From assembly GCA_964421015.1 (NCBI GenBank), contig CAYQUS010000001.1:364726-428725 (forward strand): a stretch of DNA of 64,000 nucleotides, in the 5' to 3' direction. The stretch comes from an uncultured Planctomycetia bacterium. Its GTDB lineage: Bacteria > Omnitrophota > Gorgyraeia > Tantalellales > Tantalellaceae. The notes beneath the pieces are model-generated. The model was given only the letters and a program-made list of their open reading frames with translations. It was not told the DNA's origin and searched no databases. Position numbers and translations under genes: made by a program. Shown here piece after piece: positions 35,522-56,771 of the stretch (position 1 is its first letter; each line of letters starts with the position of its first letter).

Positions 35522-37101
35522 TTTAACCCCTCTTCATAACACATTTTCCAAGGTTCGTTGATCTCGACCTTGACGATCTCTTTGTTTTGAATGTAAATGC
35601 CCTTAAAGATGATCCTCATGAACGTTTTGACGAGGTAATCCATCTTTTCACTGCTCGGATTGCTCCGTAGGCAAAGCAAAAAGTCCTGCGTTGCCTTGAC
35701 CAGATTCACCGCATTACGCTTTTCAAGGATCTTGATTTGAATCGACTTCACATCCTGACGAAGCTTCTTCTCCTCGTTTCTCAAAAGCTCGGCCCGATCC
35801 TTGTAGATATCAATATTGATCTTGTCCTCCGAGAAAACCTCGTAAAGTCCTTTTTGCTTCTCGATATTTCTGGCGAGATCCTTCTCTTTGCCTTCCAACT
35901 CTTCAATAATCTTATGCTCCGGCTCGGTCGCGCTAAGTTTAATGACGTCGCTCAATTCTTCGATAACATGCAAGTTTTTGCTGATGGTGTCAATGATGTC
36001 CCAAACTTGCTTAGTGAGAACGTCGGCGCGAACCGCCTTATTCGAGCAATTGACATACGACACGCCAAGCGCCGAGCACGCATACCACGGCCGCCTCATC
36101 TTTGTGCGATGATTGCATGTGATCATGAGCCCGCGGTAATTGCGGCCGCATTCATTGCATTTGACCACACCGGACAAGTGATACACATTATTCCGGAAAC
36201 GGACAACCGCATTCGTGCGGTTACGCGCTAAAAGCTTCTGCGCGGCATCGTACATCTCTTGCGTAACAATCGGCTCGTGGGCGTTGGGAACTTCGATCAC
36301 CTTTGACGGATCATTATTGACGTAGCAATACCCTTTGCCCTCGCCATTTTTTGTCTTGCGTTTCTTATCATAATGCCGCCGGTTCCACGTGATCGTGCCC
36401 AAGTAGACCTTGCTATGCAAAATATCTGAAATAAACTTGCCGTAAAACCTGCCACCTTGCCTCGCCGAAACTCCAAGATGATAATAATGCCCGGCGATCT
36501 GCGCGGTGCTCTTACCGCCTAAATATTGATCGTAAATATCTCTGACAATCTTTGCCTCTTCCGGATGAATCTCGAGCTTCTTGGTTTCTTTATTGTGACG
36601 ATAACCATACGGAGCAAAGCGAGCGCCTTGCCAATGCCCGCGCTTAACACCCATGACCATACCCGGGAATACGCGCTCAACCAGACGATTGCGCTCAAAC
36701 TCCGCGCAACTTCCAAGCATCTGGATAGCCATCTTACCTGCGCTGGATGTTGTGTCAAACGGCTCAGTCGCTGACTTATAGCCAATGCCAAGCGTCTCAA
36801 ATTCTTCCAGCAAGCCCAACAGGTCCTTGAGCCGCCTGCTCAAACGATCCTGTTTATACACCAAGACCAGATCGAACATCTTAATCCGCGCATCAAAAAG
36901 AAGCTTCTTGAGCGCCGGTCTGTCCATATTGCCGCCCGAGAAACCATCATCCATGTAAACATCCCGGCCGGACATACTGCAAACAACATCCCAGCCGAAG
37001 TTCTTCGCGTACTGCAACAGATAATTCCTCTGCACCTCCAGCGAAAAACCTTCCCGGGCTTGATCCTCTGTACTGACTCTCGTATATAGTGCGACTTTCA
37101 C
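35422..37101 (-). CDS. Large serine recombinase (resolvase/invertase N-domain plus recombinase and zinc-ribbon domains)
   Basis: 'MKVALYTRVSTEDQ' catalytic Ser; 559 aa; Cys-rich region 'CNECGRNYRGLMITCNHR'. Confidence 0.85.
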   Translation of the reverse strand: MKVALYTRVSTEDQAREGFSLEVQRNYLLQYAKNFGWDVVCSMSGRDVYMDDGFSGGNMDRPALKKLLFDARIKMFDLVLVYKQDRLSRRLKDLLGLLEEFETLGIGYKSATEPFDTTSSAGKMAIQMLGSCAEFERNRLVERVFPGMVMGVKRGHWQGARFAPYGYRHNKETKKLEIHPEEAKIVRDIYDQYLGGKSTAQIAGHYYHLGVSARQGGRFYGKFISDILHSKVYLGTITWNRRHYDKKRKTKNGEGKGYCYVNNDPSKVIEVPNAHEPIVTQEMYDAAQKLLARNRTNAVVRFRNNVYHLSGVVKCNECGRNYRGLMITCNHRTKMRRPWYACSALGVSYVNCSNKAVRADVLTKQVWDIIDTISKNLHVIEELSDVIKLSATEPEHKIIEELEGKEKDLARNIEKQKGLYEVFSEDKINIDIYKDRAELLRNEEKKLRQDVKSIQIKILEKRNAVNLVKATQDFLLCLRSNPSSEKMDYLVKTFMRIIFKGIYIQNKEIVKVEINEPWKMCYEEGLKWQKKSETTPIQANPRASRVMESVYFCAPSDVK

Positions 37102-37322
37102 TATTCTTCCTTTAGCGTCTCACGCCACTCTTTAATCTTGGCGATACACTCGTCCGTAAACACCGGCCAATCTTTGTAATCGCGCTTTGGCTTAACCCAG
37201 CCCTTGCGGATCCAATTGATCATGGTCTGCCGGTGAACGCCCAACATCTTTGCCGTCTCTGTCATGGTGTAAGTTTTCATTTTGGCATCCTCTAATGGTG
37301 CCCAGTATACCGTATTATACAA
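37101..37322 (-). CDS. Small HTH DNA-binding protein (excisionase/AlpA/MerR-like)
   Basis: 'MTETAKMLGVHRQTMINWIRKGWVKPKR' HTH_17-like; it overlaps the recombinase start. Confidence 0.6.
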   Translation of the reverse strand: MYNTVYWAPLEDAKMKTYTMTETAKMLGVHRQTMINWIRKGWVKPKRDYKDWPVFTDECIAKIKEWRETLKEE

Positions 37323-37333
37323 CCCTATACAAG

Positions 37334-37549
37334 CTATTTTATCTTCTCCACGTCATAGCAATTGATGAACATCCTCGACAATAGCTCAATCCCCTCATCA
37401 AACGATTTATGCGCCTCTTGGATTTCAGCACAAGACAAACCACGGCTTTTGAGCTTTATTTCTAAAGCCTCCCAGCCCCGCAGGGTAACCGCCTGATCCT
37501 TATTTGTGCTTGCATCCTTGTCCATTTTTCCTACTGCCCAATAGGACAT
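37334..37549 (-). CDS. Hypothetical 71-aa protein
   Basis: ORF only. The start codon is embedded in a GGACAT repeat/hairpin and no SD is visible, so it is doubtful. Confidence 0.25.
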   Translation of the reverse strand: MSYWAVGKMDKDASTNKDQAVTLRGWEALEIKLKSRGLSCAEIQEAHKSFDEGIELLSRMFINCYDVEKIK

Positions 37550-37763
37550 TCGGACATTTCAAATGTCCGGTTGTGTCCGGTTTTACTGACACACTGACAT
37601 GACTCGTGTCAGTGAATGTCAGTCAAAACACCCTCCAAAACCCATCAAATACCCAATAATTGACGCTTTTTCCGCAAAAAACGCCTATTTTGCGCCTTCT
37701 TGACCTCATTCTGACGCTCTCCCGATAACCCCATATGACATGACATCGCTTTTTGAAATTTTG

Positions 37764-37828
37764 TATCACTGACAGAGCGCGCCTCGCCCGACCCTCGGCC
37801 GACACCCCCTTCCAAGGACCCGCGAACC
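37764..37828. repeat. Direct repeat A (about 65 bp, roughly 80% identical to 57044-57106)
   Basis: Shared blocks tatcactg...cgcgcctcgcccgaccctc...ttccaaggaccc..gaacc. Confidence 0.7.
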
Positions 37829-37968
37829 GGCATCGAGCAACCAGTGACAACAATGACATTTTTTCTCACGGTTATCTTCTTACTTTCCACACTCAACCCC
37901 TTTGCTCCTTACTCTTAACCTACGAACACAATTAATGAAAATTCCTGTCATAATCGTCATAGCCGTCA

Positions 37969-40098
37969 CTAAAACGGCCGCTCCGAATAATCGACCTCAC
38001 CCTCCCTGCGGACGCGTATGCCGTCCCACCGGCGAGACGCGCCACAACGCCCCTTGTTAACCGAAGGATATTGACGCAACAACTCCCGGCCAAACATGAT
38101 CTTGCTAAGCGGCCGGTACTCACTCTCAAGACACCAGTCCCGATAAGCCACATACAAGGCGTCACTGCCCACATCCGCTTGAGCGTCTAAAACACATTGC
38201 TCCTCAACGAAAATAATGACGTTATTGTTCTCCTTGCGATAGGCGTCCTTCACGGTCTGCATGGACGCGCTCTCCTCAAAATACCCGCGCTTCCTTAATC
38301 GCGTAAGACCGTTAAGCGACCACAAGAAGATCCCGTCCAGCTCGCTGGCCACAATCTTGTGCTTTAGCTTGGGATCACGTTCCTCTATGGAAAACTGCCG
38401 ATTAAACGGAAGGATTAAAAGACGCCGGTAATACCCCTCGGTCTTATCCCCGACGCGCGGCATGTTATTGGTTGAGAAAAGAAGCTTGCAGTAAGGTTTG
38501 AATTGAAACGGTTGGCCGTATTTTTCGTCAGCGGAGATCGTATCGCCGGTCACGATCGCCTTAAACATATTGTCATAGACATTGGTCTTGGCATTGGTTT
38601 CAAGGCTGATATTGACTAATTTGTCCCGAAGCCGGGCGATGTAATGGGAATCGTTAAACTTCTCAAGCGGGATGGATGAACAATTGTCCTTGCCAATAAG
38701 CTCCTCAAGCACATACAAAACAACGCTCTTGCCGTTGGCCCCCTCGCCAAAGAGAAAAAGCGCCTTTTCATAATCATTGTCCCGGGTCAGGCAATAGCCG
38801 AAATACTCCTGCAAGAGCATGATCCGGGCCGCGTCGCTCTCAAAGATCTGATCCAGACTTTTCTGCCACAACAAACATTCGGCGTTCTCGCGGTATGTCA
38901 CATTTAGCTGATTAATGGAATAGACATCCGCCGAATGCGGCAAGAGCTTCATCTTGTCGATGTCATAAAGCCCGTTTTTGACATTAAAGAGCGTGATGCC
39001 ATTGATGATGTCCGGCTTAACAAAAGTCTCTGTCTTAAGCGCGACAAGAACATTGCGAAGCCTGCTTGCTGAAAAACCAGCCCCGCACGCGTCCTTGATC
39101 CACTTCTGCACCTCCTCGACAAACAGCGGCCGGTAACATCCGCCTTTGTATTCATAATAGGTATCAGCGAAGTTGATCAGCCGGTGATGCTTGAGAATCT
39201 CGTCAGCGATTTCATTGGCATTAACTTTTCGTGCGATAAGCAGACTTGGCCGCGACGGCGCATAGACTTCCCGGCAATCATTGACCGCTTTTTCGATGAC
39301 AGATTGTCCATATGTCCGGCCATCGCCAAAATGCTTCTCGTCCCACTTGGGCCGCATGAGTCCGGACTGGCGAAAGAGCGAATCCATCTGCCCGGCGTCC
39401 TTGCCCGTCCAGAAGGCCAGCTTATTGCATAACGCCAGATCCGCTTCGCTTTGAGAGGGATAATCGTTCTGCCACTGGCCGGAATAGAGCCGCTGAAACC
39501 TCTCCGCGTCTTTGCTTTTGGCGATCAAGGAAAGAATGTCGTCCGCGGGCACTTTATCTACATACCGGCCGAATATCTCTTTAAGCGCTTCGGTGCATTC
39601 ATTAAGCTCAGCCGGATAATTTTCAAGACGGTTGCCGGTAACGGTAAAGAATCGACCCTTCGTATAAATCTCCAAGCCGATCTTTGAAATCTTGCAGGCC
39701 CGGGCGATCTTGCCTTTACAAAGGATATGAACACCTGTGCCGCTTGGCGAATACTCGGAATATGAATTAAGCGCGCTTAAAATTTCTACCGCATACGGCG
39801 CGATCGCTCCGTCCTTGACGCAGTGGTCGATATCCACACCTACATACGGCGGCTGAAATACAAAGCCCACCCCCGCATACCCGCGCTGAAACGCAAGGTC
39901 GCTTGCAGTCGTATAATCCGTCCATGTCCTTGGATCGTTTGTTTTGGCAGGACGTCCGGTCAGGACGTTCATCGGGACCTTGTCGGTGCGGTCTTTATTT
40001 CGCCTGAGTTGATAACCAACCCAACAAGGCAATTTGAGCAATTCCTGAGGAATGACCTCTTCGATCTTTCTCTTCTCTTTTCTTCTCTCGTCTTCCAT
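37969..40098 (-). CDS. Bifunctional primase-polymerase (PrimPol) / D5_N / P4-family SF3 helicase replication protein
   Basis: 'VGFVFQPPYVGVDIDHC' Prim-Pol DxD motif; 'LFGEGANGKSV' P4/D5-type Walker A; 709 aa. Confidence 0.8.
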   Translation of the reverse strand: MEDERRKEKRKIEEVIPQELLKLPCWVGYQLRRNKDRTDKVPMNVLTGRPAKTNDPRTWTDYTTASDLAFQRGYAGVGFVFQPPYVGVDIDHCVKDGAIAPYAVEILSALNSYSEYSPSGTGVHILCKGKIARACKISKIGLEIYTKGRFFTVTGNRLENYPAELNECTEALKEIFGRYVDKVPADDILSLIAKSKDAERFQRLYSGQWQNDYPSQSEADLALCNKLAFWTGKDAGQMDSLFRQSGLMRPKWDEKHFGDGRTYGQSVIEKAVNDCREVYAPSRPSLLIARKVNANEIADEILKHHRLINFADTYYEYKGGCYRPLFVEEVQKWIKDACGAGFSASRLRNVLVALKTETFVKPDIINGITLFNVKNGLYDIDKMKLLPHSADVYSINQLNVTYRENAECLLWQKSLDQIFESDAARIMLLQEYFGYCLTRDNDYEKALFLFGEGANGKSVVLYVLEELIGKDNCSSIPLEKFNDSHYIARLRDKLVNISLETNAKTNVYDNMFKAIVTGDTISADEKYGQPFQFKPYCKLLFSTNNMPRVGDKTEGYYRRLLILPFNRQFSIEERDPKLKHKIVASELDGIFLWSLNGLTRLRKRGYFEESASMQTVKDAYRKENNNVIIFVEEQCVLDAQADVGSDALYVAYRDWCLESEYRPLSKIMFGRELLRQYPSVNKGRCGASRRWDGIRVRREGEVDYSERPF

Positions 40099-40344: not shown

Positions 40345-40830
40345 CCTACTAGCTACATACGCAATGTTTTGGGAAACTGACGAAAATATTTTCATTTTTT
40401 TGACCCTCTACTAGCTACATACGACGTTTTTGGTAAACCTGCCGGAAATATTTTCACTTTCTTCACTAATTTCACTCCCCTAAGCGTATATTCCGGATTT
40501 TTCCGGGAAGTGTCGGAACTTTCTGCCCCCTCATAGGTGATTACGCAAAATTTCCAAAGTGTCGATGCTTTTGGCCAACTATTTTTGCCTTCCATAGGTG
40601 AAGACGATATTTTTCTCAAAGTGTCGGGGCCCTCTACCATAGGTATTACGTTTTCGGGTCCAAAATTTCGCATAATCCTTCAACTTTCCTTCCCCAAGAC
40701 GTATATACGACCTTTTTTGCCAAAGTGTCCCACCCCTCACCTATTAACACGCAAAAAATCGAAAAGTGTAACACCCCTCATGCCCTCCCATAGATGATTA
40801 CAGGAAAAATCCGAAAGTGTCGGGGCTAAA
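40345..40830. repeat. Iteron-like repeat array (putative replication origin)
   Basis: Two 62-bp tandem units starting with ctactagctacatacg (40345, 40407), then at least six spaced copies of AAAGTGTC(G/C) with a CATAGGTGATTACG sub-motif (40507, 40546, 40618, 40722, 40762, 40814). Confidence 0.65.
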
Positions 40831-41143
40831 AATAAAAAAAACCATTCCCGGCCAATTGACTGGAAATGGCTTTTCCCGCACAGGCGGAACAGTGATCAGC
40901 TGTCCCGTAAGTCTATATTGATTTTATAACAGCGCGAATCTTTCTTTAGCCCAAATAATGACAGCGAAGCTGGCATTATTTGCCCGAAGGGTCGGCCGAT
41001 AAAATCGCCAGATTTTATCGAAGCCGAGGCAATCCCGAAAAATGCACTATCTATATTTTAATCCAGCCATTTTTCGGGGCAAGGGGGTCGTTACTACAAA
41101 TTGGTAATAATTCGGAGAGGGCTAAAAACGGAGATTTTGAAGC

Positions 41144-41524
41144 TTAATCTTCATGCTCAAGAGGCTTGTCCGGGATCATGTCATAAACCATAGTCTGAAT
41201 CTCATATTCAAACCAGTCCTGAAACACCTTCCAAGACCTGTCTTTGGGCCACATTTCAGGATCCGTATACCAGCCGCCAAGCTCGTGCTCAAATATTTCT
41301 ACGCAATGCTTCTTCAGAAACTTTGCGTACTTCTCGTTTTCCTCATAAGCCGGGATCAGATACACATGCTTTGAATCAAAACCTTCGGTTTCAACCTCAT
41401 CCGGCTTCATCTCATGCTCAGGCCCGTCATATTCCTTGCTGGTGTAGACCAGCCAGTCAATGAACGGCTTCTTGAGCTTGACGATCAAAGCGGCGCGATT
41501 GATATCAGGAAATTCTTCTAACAT
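41144..41524 (-). CDS. Hypothetical 126-aa acidic protein, last gene of the coupled operon
   Basis: ORF only; the hairpin cgataaaatc-gccag-gattttatcg (40980-41010) lies downstream. Confidence 0.4.
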   Translation of the reverse strand: MLEEFPDINRAALIVKLKKPFIDWLVYTSKEYDGPEHEMKPDEVETEGFDSKHVYLIPAYEENEKYAKFLKKHCVEIFEHELGGWYTDPEMWPKDRSWKVFQDWFEYEIQTMVYDMIPDKPLEHED

Positions 41525-41531
41525 AATACCC

Positions 41532-42122
41532 TCATTCTAAGCGTAAGAAGGCTGAAACTGTGCCGTCAGCATTTAAATCCCAGAAACGTGGCATGCGAGG
41601 TTTTAGCTTGCCATCGGGAGTTATATCTGCGCCAAAGATTTCACCTTCAATTATTGCTAACCGTTTAAGATTATCTTGAGCCAGTGAAGAAAAATCAATG
41701 CCGCTAACTTTTGGACTCATGTGATGGACGTCATTGCGGTAACTACCATATATGCCCCTTGCGGAATCAGCGCATGATTTTGATATTGTTTCATTTTGCT
41801 CTAACTCGTTAATCAGTTCTTCTATTGATTTCGCTCCGCCGTCACCCATATTTTTATTCAACCCGATTCGGCCTGCAATAAACACGATAATACCCTCATT
41901 AATGCTATGGCTCATCATTACTGCGGCAATAAAATGACCGTCGCGGTACAAATTAATACACTCTGCTGATGCCGCGGCGAAATGATGATTACCAATTATC
42001 CATTGATGTCCAATCTCTATGTATCTGTCGACTCGCTGATTGACTGAAGAATTAAAATCAGAGATTATCGCTTCTTTGACTTGTTGCATTTTTATTGCTT
42101 TCTGAATATCTGAATTTTGCAT
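41532..42122 (-). CDS. Hypothetical 196-aa protein, possible HEPN-like (weak)
   Basis: 'GSYRNDVHHM' fits an Rx4H pattern; otherwise unassigned. Confidence 0.35.
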   Translation of the reverse strand: MQNSDIQKAIKMQQVKEAIISDFNSSVNQRVDRYIEIGHQWIIGNHHFAAASAECINLYRDGHFIAAVMMSHSINEGIIVFIAGRIGLNKNMGDGGAKSIEELINELEQNETISKSCADSARGIYGSYRNDVHHMSPKVSGIDFSSLAQDNLKRLAIIEGEIFGADITPDGKLKPRMPRFWDLNADGTVSAFLRLE

Positions 42123-42123
42123 A

Positions 42124-43149
42124 TTAATTACATAAATTTATATCACTAAATACCTGACACCCGCCCCTGCACACCGAGAAATGCAAACAGGTTTTGCATT
42201 TTTCGGAAGCCAGCTTATTCCGCATATTAAGAAATATCGCGCTATTCTGCCAAGCATTCACAATCGATGACCGCTTAAGATCAACACCCTTGACTTTACG
42301 CTCCATAAATGAACATGGATACAGCATTAAATCTTCAGAAATAAAAGCAGAAAAACATCCCGCTTCACAAGCTTCCACCGAAACAGGATTGTACTCAAGA
42401 TGCGTAACGATACCTGGAACACAACAACTATCAAAGCCAATCTTTATCTTGGAATTGTTGACTAGTGAAAAGAAAAAGTCAACTTCGGGAGACATTTTTA
42501 GCATATCTGAACAGCTACCTTTACCAGCAGGTTTGAATAATAAGAATATCAAAGCATTGACTCCTGCAATTTTCTTGACATCGGCTGTCAGAAGTCTTAT
42601 TGCAGACTCAATCGAATTAGCAGATAACACAAAATGAATATTTGTTTTAATTCCGGAGTTTATTAATTTGTGAAGATTGAAATAGAATTGGCTTTCCGGC
42701 TCATAAAAACTGATCGCCACTGCTCCGCAATATTTCTTGGAAGCGAGAATGATATTTTCTGTTAAGCCGTCGCCATTCGTGGTATATGAAGGAACAATAT
42801 TGTACTTATCGCGGGTTACCTCAAGAATCTTTTCAAAGCTTGAATGCTGATTCGGGTTCCCGCCACCAAGAGCTATTTGTAGGACACCGCAGTCCTTCGC
42901 CTGTCTCAAAATATATTCATAATCAGCAAATGGCATCTCTTTCCCGGCTTTTGACGACGCCCTATAGCAGAAAGAACAGCTTCTTTCACAATAGTTTGTT
43001 ATCGATACATCAAGAAGCTCGGGACCATGAGCTGAGTATATTGGTTCTGATGAATTGCTATCTTCAACGCGCGCAAAAAACCCGGTATTTTGGTTAAAAA
43101 TTACGGAATATTTTTGCTCGTCATATCTCTTAAGCAATAAAGAGTTCAT
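42124..43149 (-). CDS. Radical SAM protein with C-terminal SPASM/twitch-like Cys cluster
   Basis: 'NYCERSCSFCY' CxxxCxxC motif; C-terminal 'CKTCLHFSVCRGGCQVFSDINLC'; 341 aa. Confidence 0.8.
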   Translation of the reverse strand: MNSLLLKRYDEQKYSVIFNQNTGFFARVEDSNSSEPIYSAHGPELLDVSITNYCERSCSFCYRASSKAGKEMPFADYEYILRQAKDCGVLQIALGGGNPNQHSSFEKILEVTRDKYNIVPSYTTNGDGLTENIILASKKYCGAVAISFYEPESQFYFNLHKLINSGIKTNIHFVLSANSIESAIRLLTADVKKIAGVNALIFLLFKPAGKGSCSDMLKMSPEVDFFFSLVNNSKIKIGFDSCCVPGIVTHLEYNPVSVEACEAGCFSAFISEDLMLYPCSFMERKVKGVDLKRSSIVNAWQNSAIFLNMRNKLASEKCKTCLHFSVCRGGCQVFSDINLCN

Positions 43150-43151
43150 GC

Positions 43152-43574
43152 TTACCAGCTTGAATTTGTAGCATCAATATAAATATTTTTTCCTTCAATC
43201 TTAAAAGAGTCACAACAAACAAATGTTTCTAATGCATTTACATCTGAAGATAAAGTTCCGAAATACAAGGAATCGCCATGCGCTTTAGCACACTTTATTT
43301 TTCCGACTAAGTCTGCAGAAAAAACATCAGCAATAAAAACATCCCATTGCCTGCCCTTGTTCCAGCGATGAGAAGCAACTGCCGCATCGAACGGCTCCAT
43401 ATTTGAAGCGAACATTTTAAACAACTCTAAAAACATGGGATAAACCGGAGATTTCTTATTGATGCCAACGCATTTCATGAATTGATCCTCTGTAAATTCC
43501 TGACCTTTTTTCAGGACCACAACAAAACATGTAGATGAGCTATTTGTAACGAAATCAAACTTTATTTTCATCAC
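43152..43574 (-). CDS. Hypothetical 140-aa protein
   Basis: ORF, translationally coupled (20-nt overlap with the upstream gene). Confidence 0.4.
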   Translation of the reverse strand: MMKIKFDFVTNSSSTCFVVVLKKGQEFTEDQFMKCVGINKKSPVYPMFLELFKMFASNMEPFDAAVASHRWNKGRQWDVFIADVFSADLVGKIKCAKAHGDSLYFGTLSSDVNALETFVCCDSFKIEGKNIYIDATNSSW

Positions 43575-43983
43575 GCACTCCTAGCACAGAATTTAATATA
43601 TTCAGGGCGCCATCGGAACTCATGGTGAACATTTCTAAATTGTAATCCCCTGTAACGTGCTCTTTGCGCCACAGCAACACAGTATTCTTGTGTTTTAATA
43701 ATTTTTCCGCTCCGGCTACCGCCACATCGTCCGGAAGACAATACTTTTTTTGAAGGAATTCACTAAATGACCCGTATTCACGACTGTGATAATTTCTATA
43801 CTCATCACGCAAATCGACCGTTTCCGAAAAAAAGCAGTCATAGACTCTGCTTAATAGCCTTCCCGCAAAACTGTTGCGCCCAACCCGCATTGCTCTTAAG
43901 AATCTCCCCTTGCTGATATTCTTTACAACATGAAAAATATACGCCTTGTTATGGTCTTTCTTGTATTCGTAATGAATCATCAA
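43555..43983 (-). CDS. Hypothetical 142-aa protein
   Basis: ORF; ATGA overlap with the NACHT gene. Confidence 0.4.
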   Translation of the reverse strand: MMIHYEYKKDHNKAYIFHVVKNISKGRFLRAMRVGRNSFAGRLLSRVYDCFFSETVDLRDEYRNYHSREYGSFSEFLQKKYCLPDDVAVAGAEKLLKHKNTVLLWRKEHVTGDYNLEMFTMSSDGALNILNSVLGVRDENKV

Positions 43984-46214
43984 ACACCACCATGCATTAA
44001 CTTGACTTCGTTTATCAAAGTATCGGCTCGATTTTTATAATACTCATTGTTGCATTTCTGATATTTCTCGAATATCGCCAAGGCAGTCACTTGGGAATCC
44101 CTATACAATAAAGACAGTATATTTTTTGCCGTAGCAGAGCCAGCCTTTTCAGCAGATGCAATGAAGAATAAAAATTCTAAGGCAGGGTTATTTACATCAC
44201 CGGCTTTAATAACCTCATTTATATATTCAAAATAATGCTCCAAGCGTATCTCGTCATCTCTACCGCCATAAGTGCTTAAAAGCCTCTTAATCAAAAACGC
44301 CTCAAATTTCTCCTGGCGATCAACGTCTTGCATTGCGACCAATAAAGAAAAAAGCATTGTAATATTTAATTTTTTGTATGTCTCCGGATCATAACGATAA
44401 TAAATCAACATTTTTAGAATAAACTCGGCCTTTTCCTTAGAAGACAAATATTCTCTCTTTACCTGCTCGACATCTTGATCTGTTAGATCGGCGTCATTTG
44501 TTTCGAATAAATAATGAAGATATTTCTCTTTCCACCATCCCGTTCTCGCTAATATTTGATCAAGTTTCTGTTTACTCCGGTCTTTTTTCGAAATAAAAAA
44601 TAAATATTTACTGACCCCTTCGAACAAAGGTTTCTGCGGCAAAACCTCATCAGCGATAAATTGGGTGAATTTTTGTTCATCTTCGGGCAACAATACATTG
44701 GCCAAATAATCGGCGATTAGAAAGTCTCGGATTTCATCAAATGTAAAGCTTATAACTTCCCCATCCAACAAAACGCCAGTTTTATCAACCACATCCCTTC
44801 TAAAGAAGATGTTTTCATCTATCAGCTTAAGTATCACATTTTTATCAATCGCAGTCTTGTCGATAACAACCTGCATTGGAACATCTTTGTGTAGCCTGGA
44901 ATCAACCATGTGTTTTACGATTTCACGAATAACTTTCTGAATGGAATCATTCCCATTAGTTTTACCTTTGATCCCATCTCGAATCTGCCTATAGTATTCT
45001 TGGAAAAGGTCAAGCATGTAAACGTTCAGAATTGAACCGATGCTTCGTCCTTGATGCGCTTCGCAAAAAATACGCAATAACAAGAAATTACTGACCAGCT
45101 TCTCATAAACTCGCCCGGCAAAAGACTTCCATTCAATTTCAAAAAACGAAAGATACTTTCGGAATAACTTATCCTTCTCATGCTCCTCAAGTTTTGAATT
45201 TATGCCCTTAATCTTTTGTATTTCTGAAGCAAAAGACGCAGTCTGGATACCCTTAAAATTTAAATCATAATATTCTGTTCTGCATGTCAGAATTATTCGG
45301 ACAAACGGGTTTGAAAGCATATCTCCAATAAAAACATTCAATGCGTTGGGAAAATTTGCATCACTCGATTCATTTAAAGCATCGATAATTACAATGAAAT
45401 TTGTTTTTCTTCGCCCACATTCATGCTCAATGAATTTATTTAAGGTATCAAAATCTGTTCCGCCGGTTATTCTTTCTGTGACAAAAGCTCTCATTGAGCT
45501 GTTATTCAGTCCGTAAAAATCACCCCCGTAGAATAAGGCAACAGGTATTTCCAGCTTTAATAAAAATTCTTTTGTAAGATCGCATATTAGATTTGTTTTC
45601 CCTTGCCCTGCATCATCTAACAGCACAAGAACTCGCGACTTCAATACATTAAACTTTGCAATGGTCTCATCCATTTTCCAGCGGGCTTGCCAAGGAAAAT
45701 CATTGCTCTTCTCCGGCATGTTATTTAAAACAACGGCATTTCGTGCAATTGAAAGGTTCAATTCTTCAAGTTTAGCTTCAAGCGTTTTCAAGGAAGGGCG
45801 TGCGAGCTTCCGAAAAACCTTAAATGCAATTTTTTGTTGAATCTCCTTGTTGAGGACAGCATTTGTGTATGTAAAATCGCGTCTGTTTATATGGTCGATA
45901 AATTTATTACAGAACAAAAAAGGATGACAAAAATATCTGAGCTCCTCTTTAACTTGATTGATTTCTATATAGGAATCTGGCAGGTATTTTTTTGAATTGA
46001 TTTGTTTTTGAATTTGATCCTGCGTAAATGACAATAGTTTCTTCTGAATGGCTATATTCTGCTTTCTACGCTTAAGGCACTCTCGAATATAATTAAACGG
46101 CCATTTAACAAACCCCTTCAAGAAAGGCACCACAAGTAAAGTAATAATAAGGCCGACCACAATTGCGACGGAATTCTGCGAAATATATTGTTTTACCGCT
46201 GGCCAATCCATCAA
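43980..46214 (-). CDS. Membrane-anchored NACHT-type STAND NTPase
   Basis: N-terminal TM 'SVAIVVGLIITLLVVPFL'; Walker A 'DDAGQGKTNL'; Walker B 'FIVIIDALNESSD'; sensor-1 'RIILTCRTEY'; helical C-terminal half; 744 aa. Confidence 0.65.
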   Translation of the reverse strand: MMDWPAVKQYISQNSVAIVVGLIITLLVVPFLKGFVKWPFNYIRECLKRRKQNIAIQKKLLSFTQDQIQKQINSKKYLPDSYIEINQVKEELRYFCHPFLFCNKFIDHINRRDFTYTNAVLNKEIQQKIAFKVFRKLARPSLKTLEAKLEELNLSIARNAVVLNNMPEKSNDFPWQARWKMDETIAKFNVLKSRVLVLLDDAGQGKTNLICDLTKEFLLKLEIPVALFYGGDFYGLNNSSMRAFVTERITGGTDFDTLNKFIEHECGRRKTNFIVIIDALNESSDANFPNALNVFIGDMLSNPFVRIILTCRTEYYDLNFKGIQTASFASEIQKIKGINSKLEEHEKDKLFRKYLSFFEIEWKSFAGRVYEKLVSNFLLLRIFCEAHQGRSIGSILNVYMLDLFQEYYRQIRDGIKGKTNGNDSIQKVIREIVKHMVDSRLHKDVPMQVVIDKTAIDKNVILKLIDENIFFRRDVVDKTGVLLDGEVISFTFDEIRDFLIADYLANVLLPEDEQKFTQFIADEVLPQKPLFEGVSKYLFFISKKDRSKQKLDQILARTGWWKEKYLHYLFETNDADLTDQDVEQVKREYLSSKEKAEFILKMLIYYRYDPETYKKLNITMLFSLLVAMQDVDRQEKFEAFLIKRLLSTYGGRDDEIRLEHYFEYINEVIKAGDVNNPALEFLFFIASAEKAGSATAKNILSLLYRDSQVTALAIFEKYQKCNNEYYKNRADTLINEVKLMHGGV

Positions 46215-49180
46215 TAATACTCCCTTATATACCCATACGCCCGGTCGAAGAGGTCTTGGTCAGTGTGGAGATTATATTTGAGCAGGGTTTTGCGGAGGGC
46301 TTTTTTGACTTCGCGCTCACCGGCGGCAGTGGACTGCCAACCCGGGAATCGCACAACCTTAACAATTTCATCTATGTCATTGACTATGCGTTCCACGATG
46401 GCAGGCGTCTGATCTGTGCGGACTTCCAAGAATAACTCGGTTAGCGCCGACTTCGCGCCACGACGCTCTTCCTGAGTCTCTTCTTCCTTTTCAGCCTGAA
46501 CGACTTCCTTGGCCAGCTCGATCAAATGCTTGAGGAAATCAACGCTATTAATGAGCCCGCGCTCAACCTTATCGCGCAACTCCTCAAGTCGCTGGCCAAG
46601 TTCTTCAAATTTCGGATTCCCCTTATGCTTCCGTAGGCGATTAACAATCTCGATCTCGATTAACTTGGTCTTTTTGGCATCCTTTGTTTTCATGAGATCT
46701 TCGACCACATCCGCATCGAGTATGATCTTCTCCAAGTCATCGCTGATCTTCTCGACATGGATATGCTCATGAATTAGCTTCATCGTCTGGGCACCCAAAG
46801 CATGCCACAATAGCCTGCCGGTATCACTGGACGGCGGCTTCACTGATTCGTACACCTTGGTCAACCAGCGGTAATCCTTCTCATAAACGTTCAGAATTGA
46901 ATCCGGCGACAGTGCCTCCCAGAGAAGCGACAAATAACTGTAATCATTTGCAAAGGCATCCCGCTTGGTATTCGTATTCACACATTCCTGCGCGAGTAAA
47001 AGCCCTTCATATCCCTCAATACTTCTATCCACATTGGGAAAGTGCGCCAGACATAGGGCTATTGCCTGCTTCAGCTTGTCTTTAAGCGTCCCAATATTCG
47101 TAATGACTTGCCGCACGGATGCCTCGTCAAATTCCAGAGCCCGGGCCACGTTATCAAAAACACCGTAATAATCCACGATCAATCCATGCGTCTTGTCTTT
47201 ATAAACACGGTTTGTCCGGCAGATAGCCTGAAGCAGATTGTGATCCTTCATGGCTTTGTCGAGATACATGGCCTGAAGAATCGGCGCGTCAAAACCAGTT
47301 AAAAGCTTGGCTGTTACGATGACAAATTTGAGCGGGTCCACAGGATCACGGAATCGGTCTAACAGTTTCTCCTGCTCATCACGCTCCATTCGATACTTCT
47401 TCTTGAAGGCTTCATCGTCTGAATGGTTGGTCGAGATGACAACCACACTCTCTTCTGGCGGGATTAGCTTGTCCAACTCTTCCTTGTAAAGTTCGCACGC
47501 AAAACGATCCGGACAGACGATCTGCGCCTTGAACCCTTGCGGCTCAATCTTTTCATGGAAGTGCTGAACAATATCAGCGGCAATCTTCCGAATGCGATCC
47601 GGTGACTTCAGGAAAGCCGACATTTGTGCCGCTTTCTGAACAAGCAATGCCTTCTGCTCTCCCGACAATGTCTCTGTCATCTGGGCAAATTCGGCATCAA
47701 TGAGCTCTTTATCTACGTGGATATCCAGCAACCTCGGCTCAAAATGAAGCGGAAGTGTGGCTTTATCCCGTAACGACTCCTCAAAAGAATATCGGGACAA
47801 GTAACCGGATAAATCTTCTTCCGCGCTAAACGTTCTAAATGTATTCCTGTCTCGCTGGTTAATTGGTGTGCCGGTAAGCCCAAAGAAAAACGCATTAGGC
47901 AAGGCATTGCGCATTTTCCGGCCCAAATCACCCTCTTGTGTTCGATGCGCCTCATCAACCAGAGCAATAATATTCTCCCGATCATTCAAAAGGCCGTCTG
48001 CCTCAGCGAATTTATGCATGGTCGTTATAATGATCTTGCGCGTGTCCTGTTTTAACAACCGTTGTAATTCTTCCCGGCTATCTGTCGCCACAATATTGGG
48101 AACATCACAGGCATTAAACGTAGCCGTAATCTGAGTATCTAAGTCCACACGATCAACCACAATAAGCACTGTAGGACTTTTAAGCTCCGGCATCTGGCGC
48201 ATCTTCTGCGCGGCAAAGACCATTAAAAGTGATTTGCCTGAACCCTGAAAATGCCAAATAAGCCCTTTCTTGACCGCGCCCTCTTTGACGCGCTGGACGA
48301 TTAGGTTTGCACCCTCATACTGCTGATACCGAGCGATGATCTTAATTCTTCGGTTCTTCCGGTCAGTTGCAAAGATCGTGAAGTGCTCCAGCAGATCCAG
48401 AATCACCGCTGGTTTGAACATTGACTCAAGCGCAACCTCGATCTCTTTCAAGCCGATCAGTTCCTTTAAGGCAACATCTTTATTTGACTCATCCCGCCAC
48501 GGCCCCCAGATTTCAAGCGGCATGCGAATAGAACCATAGCGGAATGTTTTCCCTTCCGAGGCGAATGAAAAAATATTCGGCACAAATAGCTCTGGAACAG
48601 TATTCTCATAATCGTCATGAATCTGGACAGCGCCATCCAACCAAGAAATAGACGGCCGCACCGGCGTCTTAAATTCTCCGACTACAATCGGAATGCCGTT
48701 TATAAGCAAGACCATGTCCGGAATCTTGGTAACACCCCTGATAATCTTGTACTGATTGGTTGCTATGAAAACATTGTTTGAGAGCTTATCGAAGTCAATC
48801 AACCGCACCGGGACGTGCTGGTTATTTTCGCCAAAGGGCATCGTCTTCTCGCCCTGAAGCCACTTTGTGAATTCCTCGTTGGCTTTAACAAGACCGACGT
48901 CATTGACCGATAACAAAATGGCCCGAAGCTTGTAGATGACCTCGTCCGCCCGCTCCGGTATGGCGCGAATCTCGGCATTGATCCGAATAAGGGCATCTTT
49001 GAGCATCTTCTCAACCACAACCTCGCCTTCATCACGGCCAAGCTGATCGGCTGATAGATATTTCCACTGCACTGTCTCGGCATACTCTGGACGCGCACTA
49101 TCTCCAACGCCGCCAGATCCTTGACCGGTTAACTTAGATATTACATATTGCTCGATAGTATTTTGTTCGTTAAATGTCAT
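46211..49180 (-). CDS. hsdR: Type I restriction enzyme R subunit
   Basis: N-terminal nuclease region 'LINGIPIVVGEFKTP'; SF2 helicase motifs 'HFQGSGKS' and 'VDEAHRTQ'; 989 aa. Confidence 0.9.
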   Translation of the reverse strand: MTFNEQNTIEQYVISKLTGQGSGGVGDSARPEYAETVQWKYLSADQLGRDEGEVVVEKMLKDALIRINAEIRAIPERADEVIYKLRAILLSVNDVGLVKANEEFTKWLQGEKTMPFGENNQHVPVRLIDFDKLSNNVFIATNQYKIIRGVTKIPDMVLLINGIPIVVGEFKTPVRPSISWLDGAVQIHDDYENTVPELFVPNIFSFASEGKTFRYGSIRMPLEIWGPWRDESNKDVALKELIGLKEIEVALESMFKPAVILDLLEHFTIFATDRKNRRIKIIARYQQYEGANLIVQRVKEGAVKKGLIWHFQGSGKSLLMVFAAQKMRQMPELKSPTVLIVVDRVDLDTQITATFNACDVPNIVATDSREELQRLLKQDTRKIIITTMHKFAEADGLLNDRENIIALVDEAHRTQEGDLGRKMRNALPNAFFFGLTGTPINQRDRNTFRTFSAEEDLSGYLSRYSFEESLRDKATLPLHFEPRLLDIHVDKELIDAEFAQMTETLSGEQKALLVQKAAQMSAFLKSPDRIRKIAADIVQHFHEKIEPQGFKAQIVCPDRFACELYKEELDKLIPPEESVVVISTNHSDDEAFKKKYRMERDEQEKLLDRFRDPVDPLKFVIVTAKLLTGFDAPILQAMYLDKAMKDHNLLQAICRTNRVYKDKTHGLIVDYYGVFDNVARALEFDEASVRQVITNIGTLKDKLKQAIALCLAHFPNVDRSIEGYEGLLLAQECVNTNTKRDAFANDYSYLSLLWEALSPDSILNVYEKDYRWLTKVYESVKPPSSDTGRLLWHALGAQTMKLIHEHIHVEKISDDLEKIILDADVVEDLMKTKDAKKTKLIEIEIVNRLRKHKGNPKFEELGQRLEELRDKVERGLINSVDFLKHLIELAKEVVQAEKEEETQEERRGAKSALTELFLEVRTDQTPAIVERIVNDIDEIVKVVRFPGWQSTAAGEREVKKALRKTLLKYNLHTDQDLFDRAYGYIREYY

Positions 49181-50337
49181 GTTTTGCTCACGAATAATTG
49201 ATTAATAATCTTATTTTGAATTTCGATTGTTCTATCGATAAAAGCCTCTATTGATTTCTTTTGCTTTACAATTCTATCTAACTCTTTGACTATCCTATTT
49301 TGTTCTTTTAATTCGGGAACAGGCACTTCCACAGACCTAAAAACATTGGCATTCATTTTAAAATTAACTTGTTGAGCGACATCTTTAGTAAAGTATTCTG
49401 TCCTACGTAAAAAATTAAACAAATAGAACCCATATTCCGGCAAAAATAGTTCTCTATTAGACCTAATTCGCAAAACAAAGGATGCGTAGGTATAACTGCC
49501 ATCTAAATCAAATATGGCCGTTTTCCCGACATGAGCTGGCGATCCAGATCGCCAATTAAGTAATAGATCTCCCTTCTTTAAAAAGAATTGGTCTTTTTTG
49601 GGTGGTTCAATGTAAACCTTCTTAGACATCTCAATATCGCCTTCAAGTGAAATGTTGGCTCCTGTTATGATCGGCCAACCAATTTTAGAATCTTTGTTAT
49701 CTGCTACAGATTCTGAAATTCCATAATCAACCTGAGCAATTTCTTCGATTCTGCCAACTTTCCATTTTCGCTTCTTAAAAATATCCCATTCTAAGGATTG
49801 CCTTAATTGCCCAAGACGCAATGATATCTTTGAATATGCCTCTATTGCGGAATTAATGCTCCATAGCAAGCTGGCAATATTTTCTTGTTCTTTTAAAGGC
49901 GGCACCAATAAAGTATACTTTGCTAAATCTCTCCATTTTACTCGTTTTGACATCGTGCCAGCAGCATGAGAATTTGCATATTGCCACAATGGTTCTCCAT
50001 TAAAAATAAAAGCCAAAAAACCAGGAACAATCGCTTCTTTATTCTCCCTAATAACAAAAGCATCTCCTGAACAAATACCATCGAAGTCGACCATTGACGC
50101 ACGTTTAAGGTATGCATTTCTACGAGCAAAGAGGATATCGCCTTTTTTAAAAAGTTTCATCGCGGATACTAAATTTTCAGTTGAACCCCATTTCTTAATT
50201 TTCAAATCCCCAGAAACAAAATGTTCAAGCCCAACAAAACGTTCATACCCTGACTTAGACGGATTATCAATGCGCTCAGATATTTCTGTGGCAATCTCAC
50301 CCAAACATATCTTTTGCCATTTTTCGACATTAATCAT
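49177..50337 (-). CDS. hsdS: Type I R-M specificity subunit
   Basis: Two target-recognition-domain halves with conserved spacer helices ('LKEQENIASLL', 'LKEQNRIVKEL'). Confidence 0.85.
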   Translation of the reverse strand: MINVEKWQKICLGEIATEISERIDNPSKSGYERFVGLEHFVSGDLKIKKWGSTENLVSAMKLFKKGDILFARRNAYLKRASMVDFDGICSGDAFVIRENKEAIVPGFLAFIFNGEPLWQYANSHAAGTMSKRVKWRDLAKYTLLVPPLKEQENIASLLWSINSAIEAYSKISLRLGQLRQSLEWDIFKKRKWKVGRIEEIAQVDYGISESVADNKDSKIGWPIITGANISLEGDIEMSKKVYIEPPKKDQFFLKKGDLLLNWRSGSPAHVGKTAIFDLDGSYTYASFVLRIRSNRELFLPEYGFYLFNFLRRTEYFTKDVAQQVNFKMNANVFRSVEVPVPELKEQNRIVKELDRIVKQKKSIEAFIDRTIEIQNKIINQLFVSKT

Positions 50338-51796
50338 TAGACAATGCCTCTATTAAATTTAGCATTTCAACCTTTACTACATCTGATTTCAAGTCCCAAT
50401 TAGTTATGGCAGCTTTTAAATCACCACTCTGCGTACTTTCAGAGATGTGCCGCTGAACATAAAGTTGAACACTAAGATTTCCATTGTTCTTTAAAATATC
50501 TTTGGTTGATACAATTTTGCAAAATCGCTCAATATTCTTATGCCCCCTATACGCAGTTAAAATATTTTGTATGTTTTCCTTCTCCAAATAACTCATTGTT
50601 TTTTCTTTTCTTATCTCATCAACCGCGTCAATGAAAATAACTTTATGGCGAATTTCCTTTTTCTTGTTACAAATCACAATACAAGAAACCATTGATGAGT
50701 TATAAAAGAGATTGGGACCCATCCCAATAACAGCCTCAACGACATCAGATTCAATCATTTTCTTTCGCATCTCAATTTCAGAATCCCGAAACAGTATCCC
50801 ATGTGGCCAAAGAACTGCACACCGGCCATTTTTATCATCAAGACTTTTAATAATGTGCTGCTGAAACGCGTAATCCGCGCACCCTTGCGGCGGCGTGCCG
50901 TAGATATTTCGGCCGTAAGGATCTTTTTCAAATTCCGTCCTGTTCCATGACTTGATCGAATACGGCGGATTAGCGAGGATGATATTAAATTGCTTGAGCT
51001 TATCCTTTTCCAAAAATGCCGGATGTTTTAAGGTATCCCCGCGTGCAATCTTGAAATCCTCAATGCCGTGTAAGAACATATTCATCCGCGCGATAGCCGA
51101 CGTCATCAGGTTAAGTTCTTGTCCATAGAGCTTAAGCGACCGATATTCTTTCTTATCAGCCTTAAGTTTATTCACACAAGAAAGTAGCATGCCGCCTGAT
51201 CCGCACGTGGGGTCATAAATCGACTCGCCCGGCTTTGGATCCATGATCAGCGTCATTAAGTGGACAACCGTGCGGTTGGTATAAAACTCCGCGGCCGTAT
51301 GGCCACTGTCGTCCGCAAATTGCTTGATAAGAAATTCATAGCCCTGTCCAAGTTCATCATTGGGAACATTCTTAATAGATAATGTCTCTGATGAAAAATG
51401 CTCCATCAGGTTAATAAGCGTCTCATCGCTCAACCGATCTTTATTCGTCCACTGCGCATCACCAAATATGCCAAAAAGCGTATCCGGGTTGGCTTTTTCA
51501 ATCTGGCGCATGGCCTTCTCGATCGCCATGCCGACATTCTTTGTATTCTCGCGGGTATGCTTCCAATGCGCCCCCTTGGGTATCTGGAAACGGTGATTCT
51601 CGGCAAATTCGGCAAACTTCAAGTCCCCGCGTGATTCTTTAAGCGCGTTCTGATACTCTTCATCGTAAACATCACAAATACGCTTATAGAAAAGAAGCGG
51701 GAATATGTATTGTTTGTAATCTCCGGCATCAATCAGGCCACGCAACAGCGTTGCCGCTCCCCAGAGATATTTTTCTAATGCCTGTTGTGTCATCAT
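50330..51796 (-). CDS. hsdM: Type I R-M N6-adenine DNA methyltransferase, paralogue 1
   Basis: HsdM N-domain; 'DPTCGSGGML' (motif I); 'NPPYS' (motif IV); 'EFYTNRTVV' deviates from the usual FYTP. Confidence 0.9.
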   Translation of the reverse strand: MMTQQALEKYLWGAATLLRGLIDAGDYKQYIFPLLFYKRICDVYDEEYQNALKESRGDLKFAEFAENHRFQIPKGAHWKHTRENTKNVGMAIEKAMRQIEKANPDTLFGIFGDAQWTNKDRLSDETLINLMEHFSSETLSIKNVPNDELGQGYEFLIKQFADDSGHTAAEFYTNRTVVHLMTLIMDPKPGESIYDPTCGSGGMLLSCVNKLKADKKEYRSLKLYGQELNLMTSAIARMNMFLHGIEDFKIARGDTLKHPAFLEKDKLKQFNIILANPPYSIKSWNRTEFEKDPYGRNIYGTPPQGCADYAFQQHIIKSLDDKNGRCAVLWPHGILFRDSEIEMRKKMIESDVVEAVIGMGPNLFYNSSMVSCIVICNKKKEIRHKVIFIDAVDEIRKEKTMSYLEKENIQNILTAYRGHKNIERFCKIVSTKDILKNNGNLSVQLYVQRHISESTQSGDLKAAITNWDLKSDVVKVEMLNLIEALSND

Positions 51797-55079: not shown

Positions 55080-55100
55080 AATGCCCTGTATTTGCGAGTC

Positions 55101-56105: not shown

Positions 56106-56112
56106 ACGTCTC

Positions 56113-56724: not shown

Positions 56725-56739
56725 ATTTAACTCTTTTTG

Positions 56740-56771
56740 ATGTCAGAAATAATATATCGCACTTCTGACAT
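56740..56771. promoter_or_regulatory. Inverted repeat operator upstream of the AbiEi-like gene
   Basis: ATGTCAGAA-N14-TTCTGACAT (perfect 9-bp arms), 16 nt upstream of the start codon. Confidence 0.55.

Follow-up and report, generated by a model that had tools for sequence, protein, structure and literature searches.

What do the genes packed behind a type I restriction-modification (R-M) operon encode in an uncultured bacterium of the Omnitrophota/Tantalellaceae lineage (GTDB), and how many of them belong together? The window analysed here, i.e., the whole stretch of 64,000 nt at positions 364,726-428,725 of contig CAYQUS010000001.1 (assembly GCA_964421015.1), contains six minus-strand open reading frames (ORFs) packed directly after hsdR. 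The initial annotation of this DNA had read these six ORFs as a candidate new defence module. Our analysis delimits a smaller unit, a cassette of four genes encoding a NACHT/STAND NTPase, two small proteins (sA and sB) and a radical S-adenosylmethionine (radical-SAM) enzyme with a SPASM domain, and excludes the last two genes of the run, which encode proteins of 196 and 126 aa. This cassette is real, intact, widespread and unrecognized by current annotation resources, and it includes two new protein families. Its genes are arranged in the window as follows:

43980-46211, minus strand: NACHT/STAND NTPase gene, 743 aa; its ATG at 46211 shares 1 nt with the TGA of hsdR (TGATG)
43555-43980, minus strand: sA gene, 141 aa; ATG at 43980, forming TGATG with the stop codon of the NACHT gene
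43152-43571, minus strand: sB gene, 139 aa; ATG at 43571, with a 17-nt overlap with the end of the sA gene
42124-43149, minus strand: radical-SAM/SPASM gene, 341 aa; 2-nt gap after the sB gene

All six ORFs were found at the coordinates given by the initial annotation. The ORF lister had taken upstream TTG or GTG codons, and three starts were reset to the ATG located just inside, from reading of the junctions; the transmembrane NACHT protein thereby passes from 744 to 743 aa, and the lengths and junctions of sA and sB are corrected. The motifs reported earlier, namely the NACHT motifs, the N-terminal transmembrane (TM) helix, the CxxxCxxC motif with a C-terminal cysteine cluster, and the Rx4HH pattern of the 196-aa protein, were all located in the translations. 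The G+C content of the four cassette genes (0.36-0.40) is low compared to hsdR (0.48) and to the whole window (0.467), which fits a separately acquired module.

The extent of the conserved unit was determined from nine contexts obtained by exact-protein look-ups and from 80 species genomes out of 251 radical-SAM matches (loci L001-L089), scanned with hidden Markov models (HMMs) built from seven cassettes. The gene order and strand NACHT-sA-sB-radical-SAM are kept in every locus with DNA upstream of the radical-SAM gene (approximately 85 loci), so that both sA and sB are present in all of them, and the only incomplete cassettes among the sampled loci are those cut by contig ends. The cassette genes overlap or abut across loci, with sizes of 710-1178 aa for the product of the NACHT-family gene, approximately 121-150 aa for sA and approximately 124-142 aa for sB. 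Identity to the window proteins is approximately 46-53% for the radical-SAM enzyme, 25-42% for sB, 20-33% for sA and 20-27% for the NACHT protein. These data show a four-gene unit that is strictly syntenic and widely transferred. The six-gene module put forward by the initial annotation is thereby reduced to its NACHT, sA, sB and radical-SAM genes, the 196-aa and 126-aa genes not being members.

The cassette is spread over 251 species genomes from at least 12 bacterial phyla and one archaeon, a Methanoregula, with radical-SAM and NACHT genes co-occurring in constant order, an association on which the initial annotation had made its proposal depend. The lineages concerned include Omnitrophota, Nitrospirota, Chloroflexota, Campylobacterota, Verrucomicrobiota, Bacillota, Bacteroidota, Planctomycetota, Desulfobacterota, Cyanobacteria and Acidobacteriota, as well as Alpha-, Gamma- and Zetaproteobacteria. 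Among cultured organisms, it is present in Agrobacterium tumefaciens, Vibrio atypicus, Clostridium puniceum, Tissierella praeacuta, Arenibacter, Orbus, Sphingomonas, Rhizobium and Chitinophaga. It is also carried by conjugative Agrobacterium plasmids (A. tumefaciens Ach5 pAt, NZ_CP011248.1, 20854-25306) and by a Rhodobacter plasmid. The small cassette genes of Ach5 pAt are labelled "hypothetical" in RefSeq, and from the RefSeq annotation of this plasmid and of the Rhodobacter plasmid the cassette has no system name there. None of the four genes has a match to a cassette-specific model in PADLOC 2.0, NCBIfam 20 or Pfam; since these resources only return generic NACHT and radical-SAM/SPASM domains, annotation pipelines miss the cassette. 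HMM searches of the six window proteins supported the NACHT and radical-SAM assignments and gave no significant match for sA, sB or the 196-aa and 126-aa proteins.

The NACHT protein of the window contains a TM helix (residues 14-31, from hydropathy), a Walker A motif (GQGKT, 202-206), a Walker B motif (IIDALNE, 275-281) and a TCR sensor motif (309-311). Its best match is the PADLOC Avs2 model, over the NTPase region (E 5e-22, profile positions 338-662 of 1504). When 28 diverse NACHT-family homologues are aligned, the Walker A, Walker B and sensor residues do not vary; 15 of these homologues reach the Pfam NACHT threshold and 17 that of NPHP3_N. The conservation profile delimits a NACHT core kept at approximately 66-625 (window numbering), including a pre-NACHT helical region at approximately 66-125. 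The N-termini are diverse, with a SMEK_N domain in seven of the 28 proteins, a trypsin-like protease domain in four and a PNP_UDP_1 domain in one; an alpha/beta-hydrolase is also present, and one or two N-terminal TM helices are found in the window clade and in a few others. The NACHT partner trades its N-terminal domain between lineages, like defence NLRs. Such effector shuffling, together with a patchy distribution across phyla and plasmid carriage, is typical of Avs and bNACHT proteins. Past the NTPase module, the protein extends over a short helical region of approximately 220 aa, the final 120 aa being poorly conserved; no TPR, LRR, WD40 or other Pfam domain was found in this C-terminus, and no repeat-type sensor was detected. 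Two lineages encode sA in one continuous ORF with the NACHT C-terminus (L078, 5050-8586, a Myxococcales metagenome-assembled genome (MAG), and L022, 401-1720, an Anaerolineae MAG), suggesting a physical association between the two proteins. A metallo-beta-lactamase-fold protein, possibly a fifth component within one sub-lineage, is encoded by one of the two nearest genes upstream of the NACHT gene at 5 of 36 diverse loci. In L007, this gene (3054-4253) overlaps the NACHT gene, whose product contains a trypsin domain.

The 341-aa protein is a radical-SAM enzyme whose SPASM domain is complete. It matches Pfam Radical_SAM (PF04055, E 4.7e-12) and the NCBIfam SPASM domain model TIGR04085 (35.1 bits vs a cut-off of 27), and its cysteines form the motifs C54xxxC58xxC61 and C318xxC321x5C327x3C331, followed by C340. 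C54, C58 and C61 are invariant in the family alignment, as are the seven SPASM cysteines (C261, C279, C318, C321, C327, C331 and C340). The family is large, with more than 2251 homologous clusters. Among proteins of solved structure, the closest is SuiB, which forms the Lys-Trp cross-link of streptide (5v1q, E 3.5e-16, residues 52-336), and the best NCBIfam relatives are the peptide maturases WgkB, GeoRSP, ScmE, KxxxW maturase and MftC. The initial annotation had considered that the enzyme might be a known anSME or a maturase of RiPPs (peptides made by the ribosome and modified after translation); this is contradicted by the scores, all far below cut-off, as none of the named equivalogs (WgkB, GeoRSP, ScmE, StrB/SuiB, MftC, PqqE, anSME) was reached (25-62 bits vs cut-offs of 265-650). 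Neither an RRE/PqqD domain in the enzyme nor an RRE/PqqD partner gene was found.

Viperins are established antiviral radical-SAM enzymes. The enzyme of the cassette could likewise produce a small antiviral molecule, e.g., a modified nucleotide, with only a regulatory role for the NACHT protein and the small proteins. It does match the PADLOC pVip models (approximately 6e-10 to 9e-10) and the NCBIfam viperin model (5e-8), but these matches are confined to the generic radical-SAM core (residues 48-166) and reach 32 bits against a cut-off of 180 for NF038283. Furthermore, viperins have no SPASM domain, whereas a complete one is present here, the nearest relatives are peptide maturases, and the strict co-occurrence of the enzyme with proteins carrying a common NSSS motif in two unrelated contexts (see below) argues for a protein partner. 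Finally, nucleotides of the pVip type were not detected for the KpAvs2 operon, a published system combining a STAND protein with a radical-SAM enzyme (PMC11564622). We consider a viperin-like chemistry very unlikely. The initial annotation had suggested either a modified protein or a nucleotide as the product of the enzyme, and it is the first option that was strengthened by the viral loci described below.

The protein sB begins with MKIKFDFVTNSSSTCF and ends with a tryptophan. Its family comprises 637 clusters at 50% identity, all corresponding to stand-alone proteins of 120-145 aa that align to the profile end to end. Among 66 representatives, the N, S, S and T residues of the N-terminus MKIKxDFVTNSSSTSF are the only invariant ones. 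In the AlphaFold2 model of sB (pLDDT 85), a small alpha/beta protein, this NSSxT motif is located in the turn of an N-terminal beta-hairpin. The model of sA (pLDDT 80) presents secondary-structure elements in the same order. The NSSxT motif is absent from sA, in which the feature conserved throughout the family is an EY pair (E68/Y69). Direct BLASTP comparison of sA and sB gave no alignment, their kinship being visible in profiles only: the HMMs of the two families cross-match and hhalign aligns them in register (probability 87%, E 4e-6). Profile comparison thus shows sA and sB as distant paralogues, with loss of the motif from sA. Neither protein has a significant match in Pfam, NCBIfam, PADLOC or PHROGs, their profiles gave no meaningful match against the PDB, and a Foldseek search of the sB model against BFVD returned no match.

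Three specific reactions on sB were considered and dropped: the anSME-type conversion of serine to formylglycine, as there is no (C/S)xPxR motif; a streptide-like Lys-Trp link between the N-terminal lysine and the C-terminal tryptophan, as the related viral proteins have no C-terminal aromatic residue; and a ranthipeptide-type Cys-Asp link at FFCxDSF, as C120 varies across the family.

SPASM enzymes are mostly maturases of RiPPs or cofactors, and the cassette could accordingly be non-immune, serving the maturation of a protein or RiPP-like product (a toxin, a signal or a cofactor-bearing protein) whose expression or export would be under the control of the STAND ATPase, with an incidental location in defence islands. 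Housekeeping genes neighbour the cassette at many loci, and radical-SAM-SPASM peptide-processing modules have been described on STAND/AP-ATPase conflict systems, whose peptide may serve as toxin or signal (Aravind group; PMC7159879). Nevertheless, across the sampled loci the cassette has no conserved companion gene for a protease, a transporter or leader cleavage, and sB is modelled as a folded protein of approximately 135 aa and not as a short precursor. Immune NLRs typically swap N-terminal effectors as the NACHT gene does, and the KpAvs2 precedent is an immune system (PMC11564622). A non-immune role thus appears improbable.

A sister version of the enzyme and of sB is present on contigs classified as viral. 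A scan of IMG/VR with the sB motif retrieved four full cassettes with the gene order kept, as well as 40 loci with several small genes (61-230 aa, median 131) that share the N-terminus M-K-I-K-x-D-F-V-T-N-S-S-S-[TSA]-[SCA]-[FY] before their sequences diverge completely. This N-terminus is all that the 134 distinct viral proteins (hereafter NSSS proteins) have in common, and only phrog_7397, of unknown function, partly covers them. At 21 of the 40 loci, a homologous radical-SAM gene lies within the fetched 8-kb flanks, upstream of the small genes where checked; neither NACHT nor sA genes were found in the 40 array loci. An independent scan of IMG/VR starting from the viral radical-SAM enzyme retrieved 378 contigs. 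Among 80 loci fetched with this enzyme alone, 57 carry one to nine motif genes, always downstream of the radical-SAM gene and on the same strand, often abutting it (0 matches in the reversed-translation control), and some of the 23 others carry variant motifs, e.g., DHITNSSS. Arrays can be seen, for example, in L098 (5556-12461; radical-SAM gene at 5556-6557, NSSS genes at 6939-8821) and in L156-L235, e.g., in L183 (8001-16650), and some of the contigs reach 200-312 kb.

The viral radical-SAM enzymes share 34-37% identity and the signature motifs with those of the cassettes. In a neighbour-joining tree, 81 cassette and 16 viral enzymes form two sister clades, with a radical-SAM enzyme of T4-like phages as distant outgroup. 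The latter (approximately 28% identity, phrog_7293) is encoded among small early-type genes in 139-171 T4-like phages of Klebsiella, Enterobacter, Cronobacter and Citrobacter, e.g., Enterobacter phage phi5 (L092, 3887-5062) and KP15-like Klebsiella phages; no NSSS-motif genes are present within 4 kb of it. No close relative of the cassette enzyme and no NSSS protein were found in the cultured phages searched. The enzyme therefore co-occurs with NSSxT-motif proteins in two unrelated settings, the cassettes and 57 of the 80 viral loci, and the association of a sister-clade enzyme with arrays sharing the N-terminus of sB suggests an enzyme-substrate pair. The simplest reading of these sequences is that the radical-SAM family works on, or with, the NSSxT hairpin.

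These viral loci raise the possibility that sA and sB are baits, i.e., host mimics of phage NSSS proteins, and that the cassette targets phages carrying the radical-SAM/NSSS module: a phage NSSS protein would displace sB on sA, or the phage enzyme would alter sB, and the NACHT protein would fire. Such a sensor would fit with the sister relationship of the host and viral enzymes, with the 16-residue N-terminus identical in sB and the 134 viral proteins, with the loss of the motif and fast evolution of sA (20-33% identity) and with a NACHT protein devoid of a large sensor domain of its own. However, it would leave unexplained the highly conserved and apparently active enzyme of the host, and the arrays are found in no cultured phage. 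We regard a bait as rather unlikely, although it would account for several features of the small proteins.

Taken together, the data somewhat favour the interpretation of the locus as a four-gene NLR-like conflict cassette, most likely directed against phages and acting by abortive infection. The SPASM enzyme would modify sB post-translationally at or next to the NSSxT hairpin, SuiB, its nearest solved relative, being a peptide cross-linker. Then, sA would tether the sA/sB pair to the NACHT protein, with which it is in frame in two lineages, and the trio formed by sA, sB and the radical-SAM enzyme would contribute sensing or licensing, a function missing from the short NACHT C-terminus. Upon triggering, the NACHT ATPase would oligomerize and its N-terminal domain would act as the effector. 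In the window, this predicted effector consists of one TM helix, flanked C-terminally by basic residues, with the ATPase in the cytoplasm; clustering of such helices would damage the membrane, stop the infected cell and abort the infection. In this best explanation, the cassette rides as cargo on an integrative element, beside a type I R-M system. The proposal of an Abi/NLR-like module made by the initial annotation is thus supported in part, for the four genes, which are conserved and horizontally spread and show the hallmarks of an NLR-like defence system.

In agreement with a role in conflict, the 130 genes flanking 36 diverse cassettes include HerA+SIR2 pairs, type I restriction endonucleases, DpdF and methylases. 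Several observations nevertheless weigh against the proposed cassette function or against parts of it. Many of these same flanks correspond to housekeeping genes, and we infer the defence role from architecture and context. The NACHT protein of the window matches Pfam NPHP3_N only below threshold and likewise does not reach the NACHT threshold, and no solved STAND structure was found when the family profile was compared to PDB sequences. The in-frame NACHT-sA ORFs both come from MAGs and may be natural fusions or artefacts of assembly or stop loss. Instead of being a substrate, sB could be a subunit or an adaptor of the enzyme. The last cluster motif, CxxCx5Cx3C, is absent from most viral radical-SAM enzymes, so that their chemistry may differ. 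Finally, the array contigs are viral according to the IMG/VR classification alone, and two ORFs adjoining the arrays have no match in phage genomes.

A broader interpretation, possible but doubtful, would be that radical-SAM/SPASM enzymes and NSSxT-hairpin proteins constitute an unrecognized protein-modification system common to uncultivated phages and cells. Its phage form would consist of the enzyme with arrays of one to nine diversified small proteins, and cells would have wired sB and its degenerate paralogue sA to an NLR-like ATPase. If true, an immune receptor would read either a protein modification installed by a radical-SAM enzyme or its mimicry by phage proteins; NLR-type immunity would thereby gain a new sensing principle, and the role of Avap1-like radical-SAM partners a first handle. 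The arrays of the 378 viral contigs point to an unexplored phage protein family that may act in counter-defence or host takeover.

The neighbourhood of the cassette in the window comprises the following features:

46211-54056, minus strand: type I R-M operon radC, hsdM, hsdM, hsdS, hsdR (from Pfam), the context of the cassette
41532-42122, minus strand: 196-aa gene, 1-nt gap after the radical-SAM gene
41144-41524, minus strand: 126-aa gene, 7-nt gap after the 196-aa gene
40952-40982 and approximately 40997-41020, minus strand: two hairpins 3' of the last ORF, the first an inverted repeat with 14-nt arms, the second read from the sequence

The 196-aa gene, the 126-aa gene and the R-M operon are neighbours of the cassette in a defence island and not components of it. 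The initial annotation had included a HEPN-like 196-aa protein and the 126-aa protein in a module coupled to the type I R-M system and backing it up. The window itself is in line with this view, as start/stop coupling is tight for all its genes; L012, L137 and L150 show these eleven genes in the same arrangement, and all members of the 196-aa family keep the Rx4H motif. It is the distribution of the genes that makes a six-gene system highly improbable. Homologues of the 196-aa gene follow the cassette in its closest relatives only (the window, L001, L010, L012, L137 and L150; at least 92% identity) and are absent at every distant locus that extends past the radical-SAM gene. The 126-aa gene is rarer still, being found only in the window and in L010, L012, L137, L139 and L150, so that among the small ORFs whose conservation was in question it behaves unlike sA and sB. 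L002, with a cassette 73% identical and the same hsd operon, has neither gene, as is the case for all distant loci. Moreover, members of the 196-aa family occur without a cassette within 4-6 kb at no less than nine metagenome loci (among L140-L149 and L151). In L150, a frameshift splits the 196-aa gene (5560-6149) into two ORFs, the four-gene cassette and the 126-aa gene being intact.

The 196-aa protein contains the sequence RNDVHH at 129-134, within a motif S[YF]Rx[DN][IV]HHMxP that is invariant in 13 homologues, and could possibly be a HEPN-like RNase from this pattern; it has no match in Pfam, NCBIfam or PADLOC and only a weak, sub-threshold match in PHROGs. For the 126-aa protein, nothing significant was found in Pfam, NCBIfam, PADLOC or PHROGs; its sole match, to Cas2e (PADLOC, E 0.011), was taken as a chance one.

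The association with the R-M operon is similarly restricted, since hsdR adjoins the cassette only in one clade (the window, L002/L011, L012, L013, L137 and L150). Elsewhere, the cassette is preceded by a type III-like methylase/helicase pair (L001), by a TatD/QueC/QueE-like/PTPS cluster (L003) or by unrelated genes, including housekeeping ones, and the coupling to type I R-M emphasized in the initial annotation is therefore a feature of a single clade. As an observation in its own right, the L003 cluster (4200-6723; TatD, QueC, a QueE-like radical-SAM protein and PTPS (QueD)) is located directly upstream of the cassette and resembles 7-deazaguanine DNA-modification or Qat-like defence genes. 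In L001, the region downstream of a 92%-identical cassette (12191-16756) encodes a HATPase, a Multi_ubiq/Prok-E2_E/ThiF ubiquitin-like conjugation set, an Endonuclease_NS and a serine recombinase, and looks like another segment of a defence island.

The R-M operon of the window corresponds to the coupled radC-hsdM-hsdM-hsdS-hsdR run previously reported to lead into the cassette: successive genes overlap by 4-8 nt, and Pfam detects HSDR_N, SWI2_SNF2 and T1R_D3 domains in HsdR, Methylase_S in HsdS, and HsdM_N with N6_Mtase twice. The two hsdM genes are full-length tandem paralogues (50330-53286, reciprocal E approximately 1e-164) with radC ahead of them, and a double hsdM is also present in L002. 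At the other end of the run, where a hairpin had been proposed to close the operon, two are present but have no T tract (40952-41020), and a terminator scan reports nothing there.

Beyond the hairpins, the region 40346-40830, between a primase-helicase gene and the 126-aa gene, contains several families of direct repeats of 18-59 nt, with units similar to AAAGTGTCGGGGCCCTC, units corresponding to CATAGGTGA and a 59-nt pair, which look like iterons or a replication origin of a mobile element. The primase-helicase is of the D5/NrS-1 type (37969-40098). The island is bounded by a large serine recombinase gene (35422-37101) that overlaps by approximately 100 nt the end of a gene encoding a MiaB-like radical-SAM methylthiotransferase (34151-35521). 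The region 34151-40098 is probably one end of an integrative element carrying the defence island. On the opposite side, upstream of radC (54032-57933), we observed a 169-aa ORF without family, a calcineurin-like phosphoesterase gene (54525-55079), a RhuM gene (55101-56105), a DUF6088/AbiEi-like gene (56113-56724) and a gene encoding a SET-domain protein (57358-57933); no AbiEii-type partner for the DUF6088/AbiEi-like gene was identified in this interval.

How does the cassette relate to known systems? STAND/NLR proteins hold a central place in the immunity of all domains of life. A literature search on radical-SAM/SPASM enzymes with NACHT, STAND, antiphage systems or jumbo phages yielded no description of the cassette or of the viral arrays; two items mentioning SPASM, a preprint on a Porphyromonas integrative and conjugative element and a machine-learning paper on phage-host relationships, were set aside as irrelevant. 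The cassette shares with bNACHT and Avs systems a central NACHT/STAND NTPase, variable N-terminal effectors and a sporadic, horizontally transferred distribution. It differs from them, as they are usually single genes with large C-terminal sensors, by its short NACHT C-terminus and by three accessory genes that are always present.

On the enzymatic side, the closest parallels are the radical-SAM/SPASM maturases (SuiB/StrB, PqqE, MftC, sactipeptide and ranthipeptide synthases), which have in common with the cassette enzyme the CxxxCxxC motif, the seven-cysteine SPASM domain and an adjoining candidate substrate gene. In contrast with these loci, the putative substrate is a folded protein of approximately 135 aa with a conserved N-terminus in place of a leader-core peptide, and the cassette has no protease or exporter. 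A second, looser analogue may be found in the peptide-processing modules of the VMAP/FtsH ternary conflict systems (Kaur, Burroughs, Iyer and Aravind, eLife 2020; PMC7159879), in which a radical-SAM-SPASM enzyme and a small protein are likewise associated with a STAND (AP-ATPase) effector; the zincin protease, FxSxx-COOH precursors and vWA-MoxR cores of these systems are all absent from the cassette.

The closest published analogue is the KpAvs2 operon, which encodes the Avs2 STAND protein, the radical-SAM protein Avap1 and Avap2 (Bechon et al., Nat Commun 2024; PMC11564622), homology between the two systems being unproven. This system is found in defence islands and acts by abortive infection; Avap1 is needed against phage T2 but not against SECphi18, and viperin-type nucleotides were not detected, whereas the small protein Avap2 binds a helical bundle that lies between effector and NTPase, and KpAvs2 protects against SECphi18 only with Avap2 (PMC11564622). 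Like the cassette, it combines a STAND/NLR-like ATPase bearing an N-terminal effector with two kinds of partner, a radical-SAM protein and an accessory protein of small size. It differs by having three genes, whereas the cassette has four, the two small ones being paralogous, and by the long Avs2-type C-terminal sensor and Mrr nuclease of KpAvs2, compared to a NACHT protein that has 743 aa, a TM helix and a short C-terminus. Avap2 was reported as DUF6375-like with HHpred, a more sensitive method (PMC11564622), and none of the 129 sA, sB and viral NSSS proteins matches PF19902 at E<=10. The claim of the initial annotation that no described system combines such proteins agrees with the literature search for the cassette itself and is too broad for the pairing of a STAND ATPase with a radical-SAM partner, for which KpAvs2 is an experimentally validated precedent (PMC11564622). 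In this only published case, the authors of the KpAvs2/Avap1 study left the role of the radical-SAM partner open. The invariant NSSxT hairpin of sB, as a candidate substrate motif, makes the role of such an enzyme in an NLR system testable by mass spectrometry and mutagenesis, and the cassette is tractable, being compact, widespread and carried by culturable strains that include Vibrio atypicus DSM 25292, Clostridium puniceum DSM 2619, Tissierella praeacuta DSM 18095 and, on pAt, A. tumefaciens Ach5.

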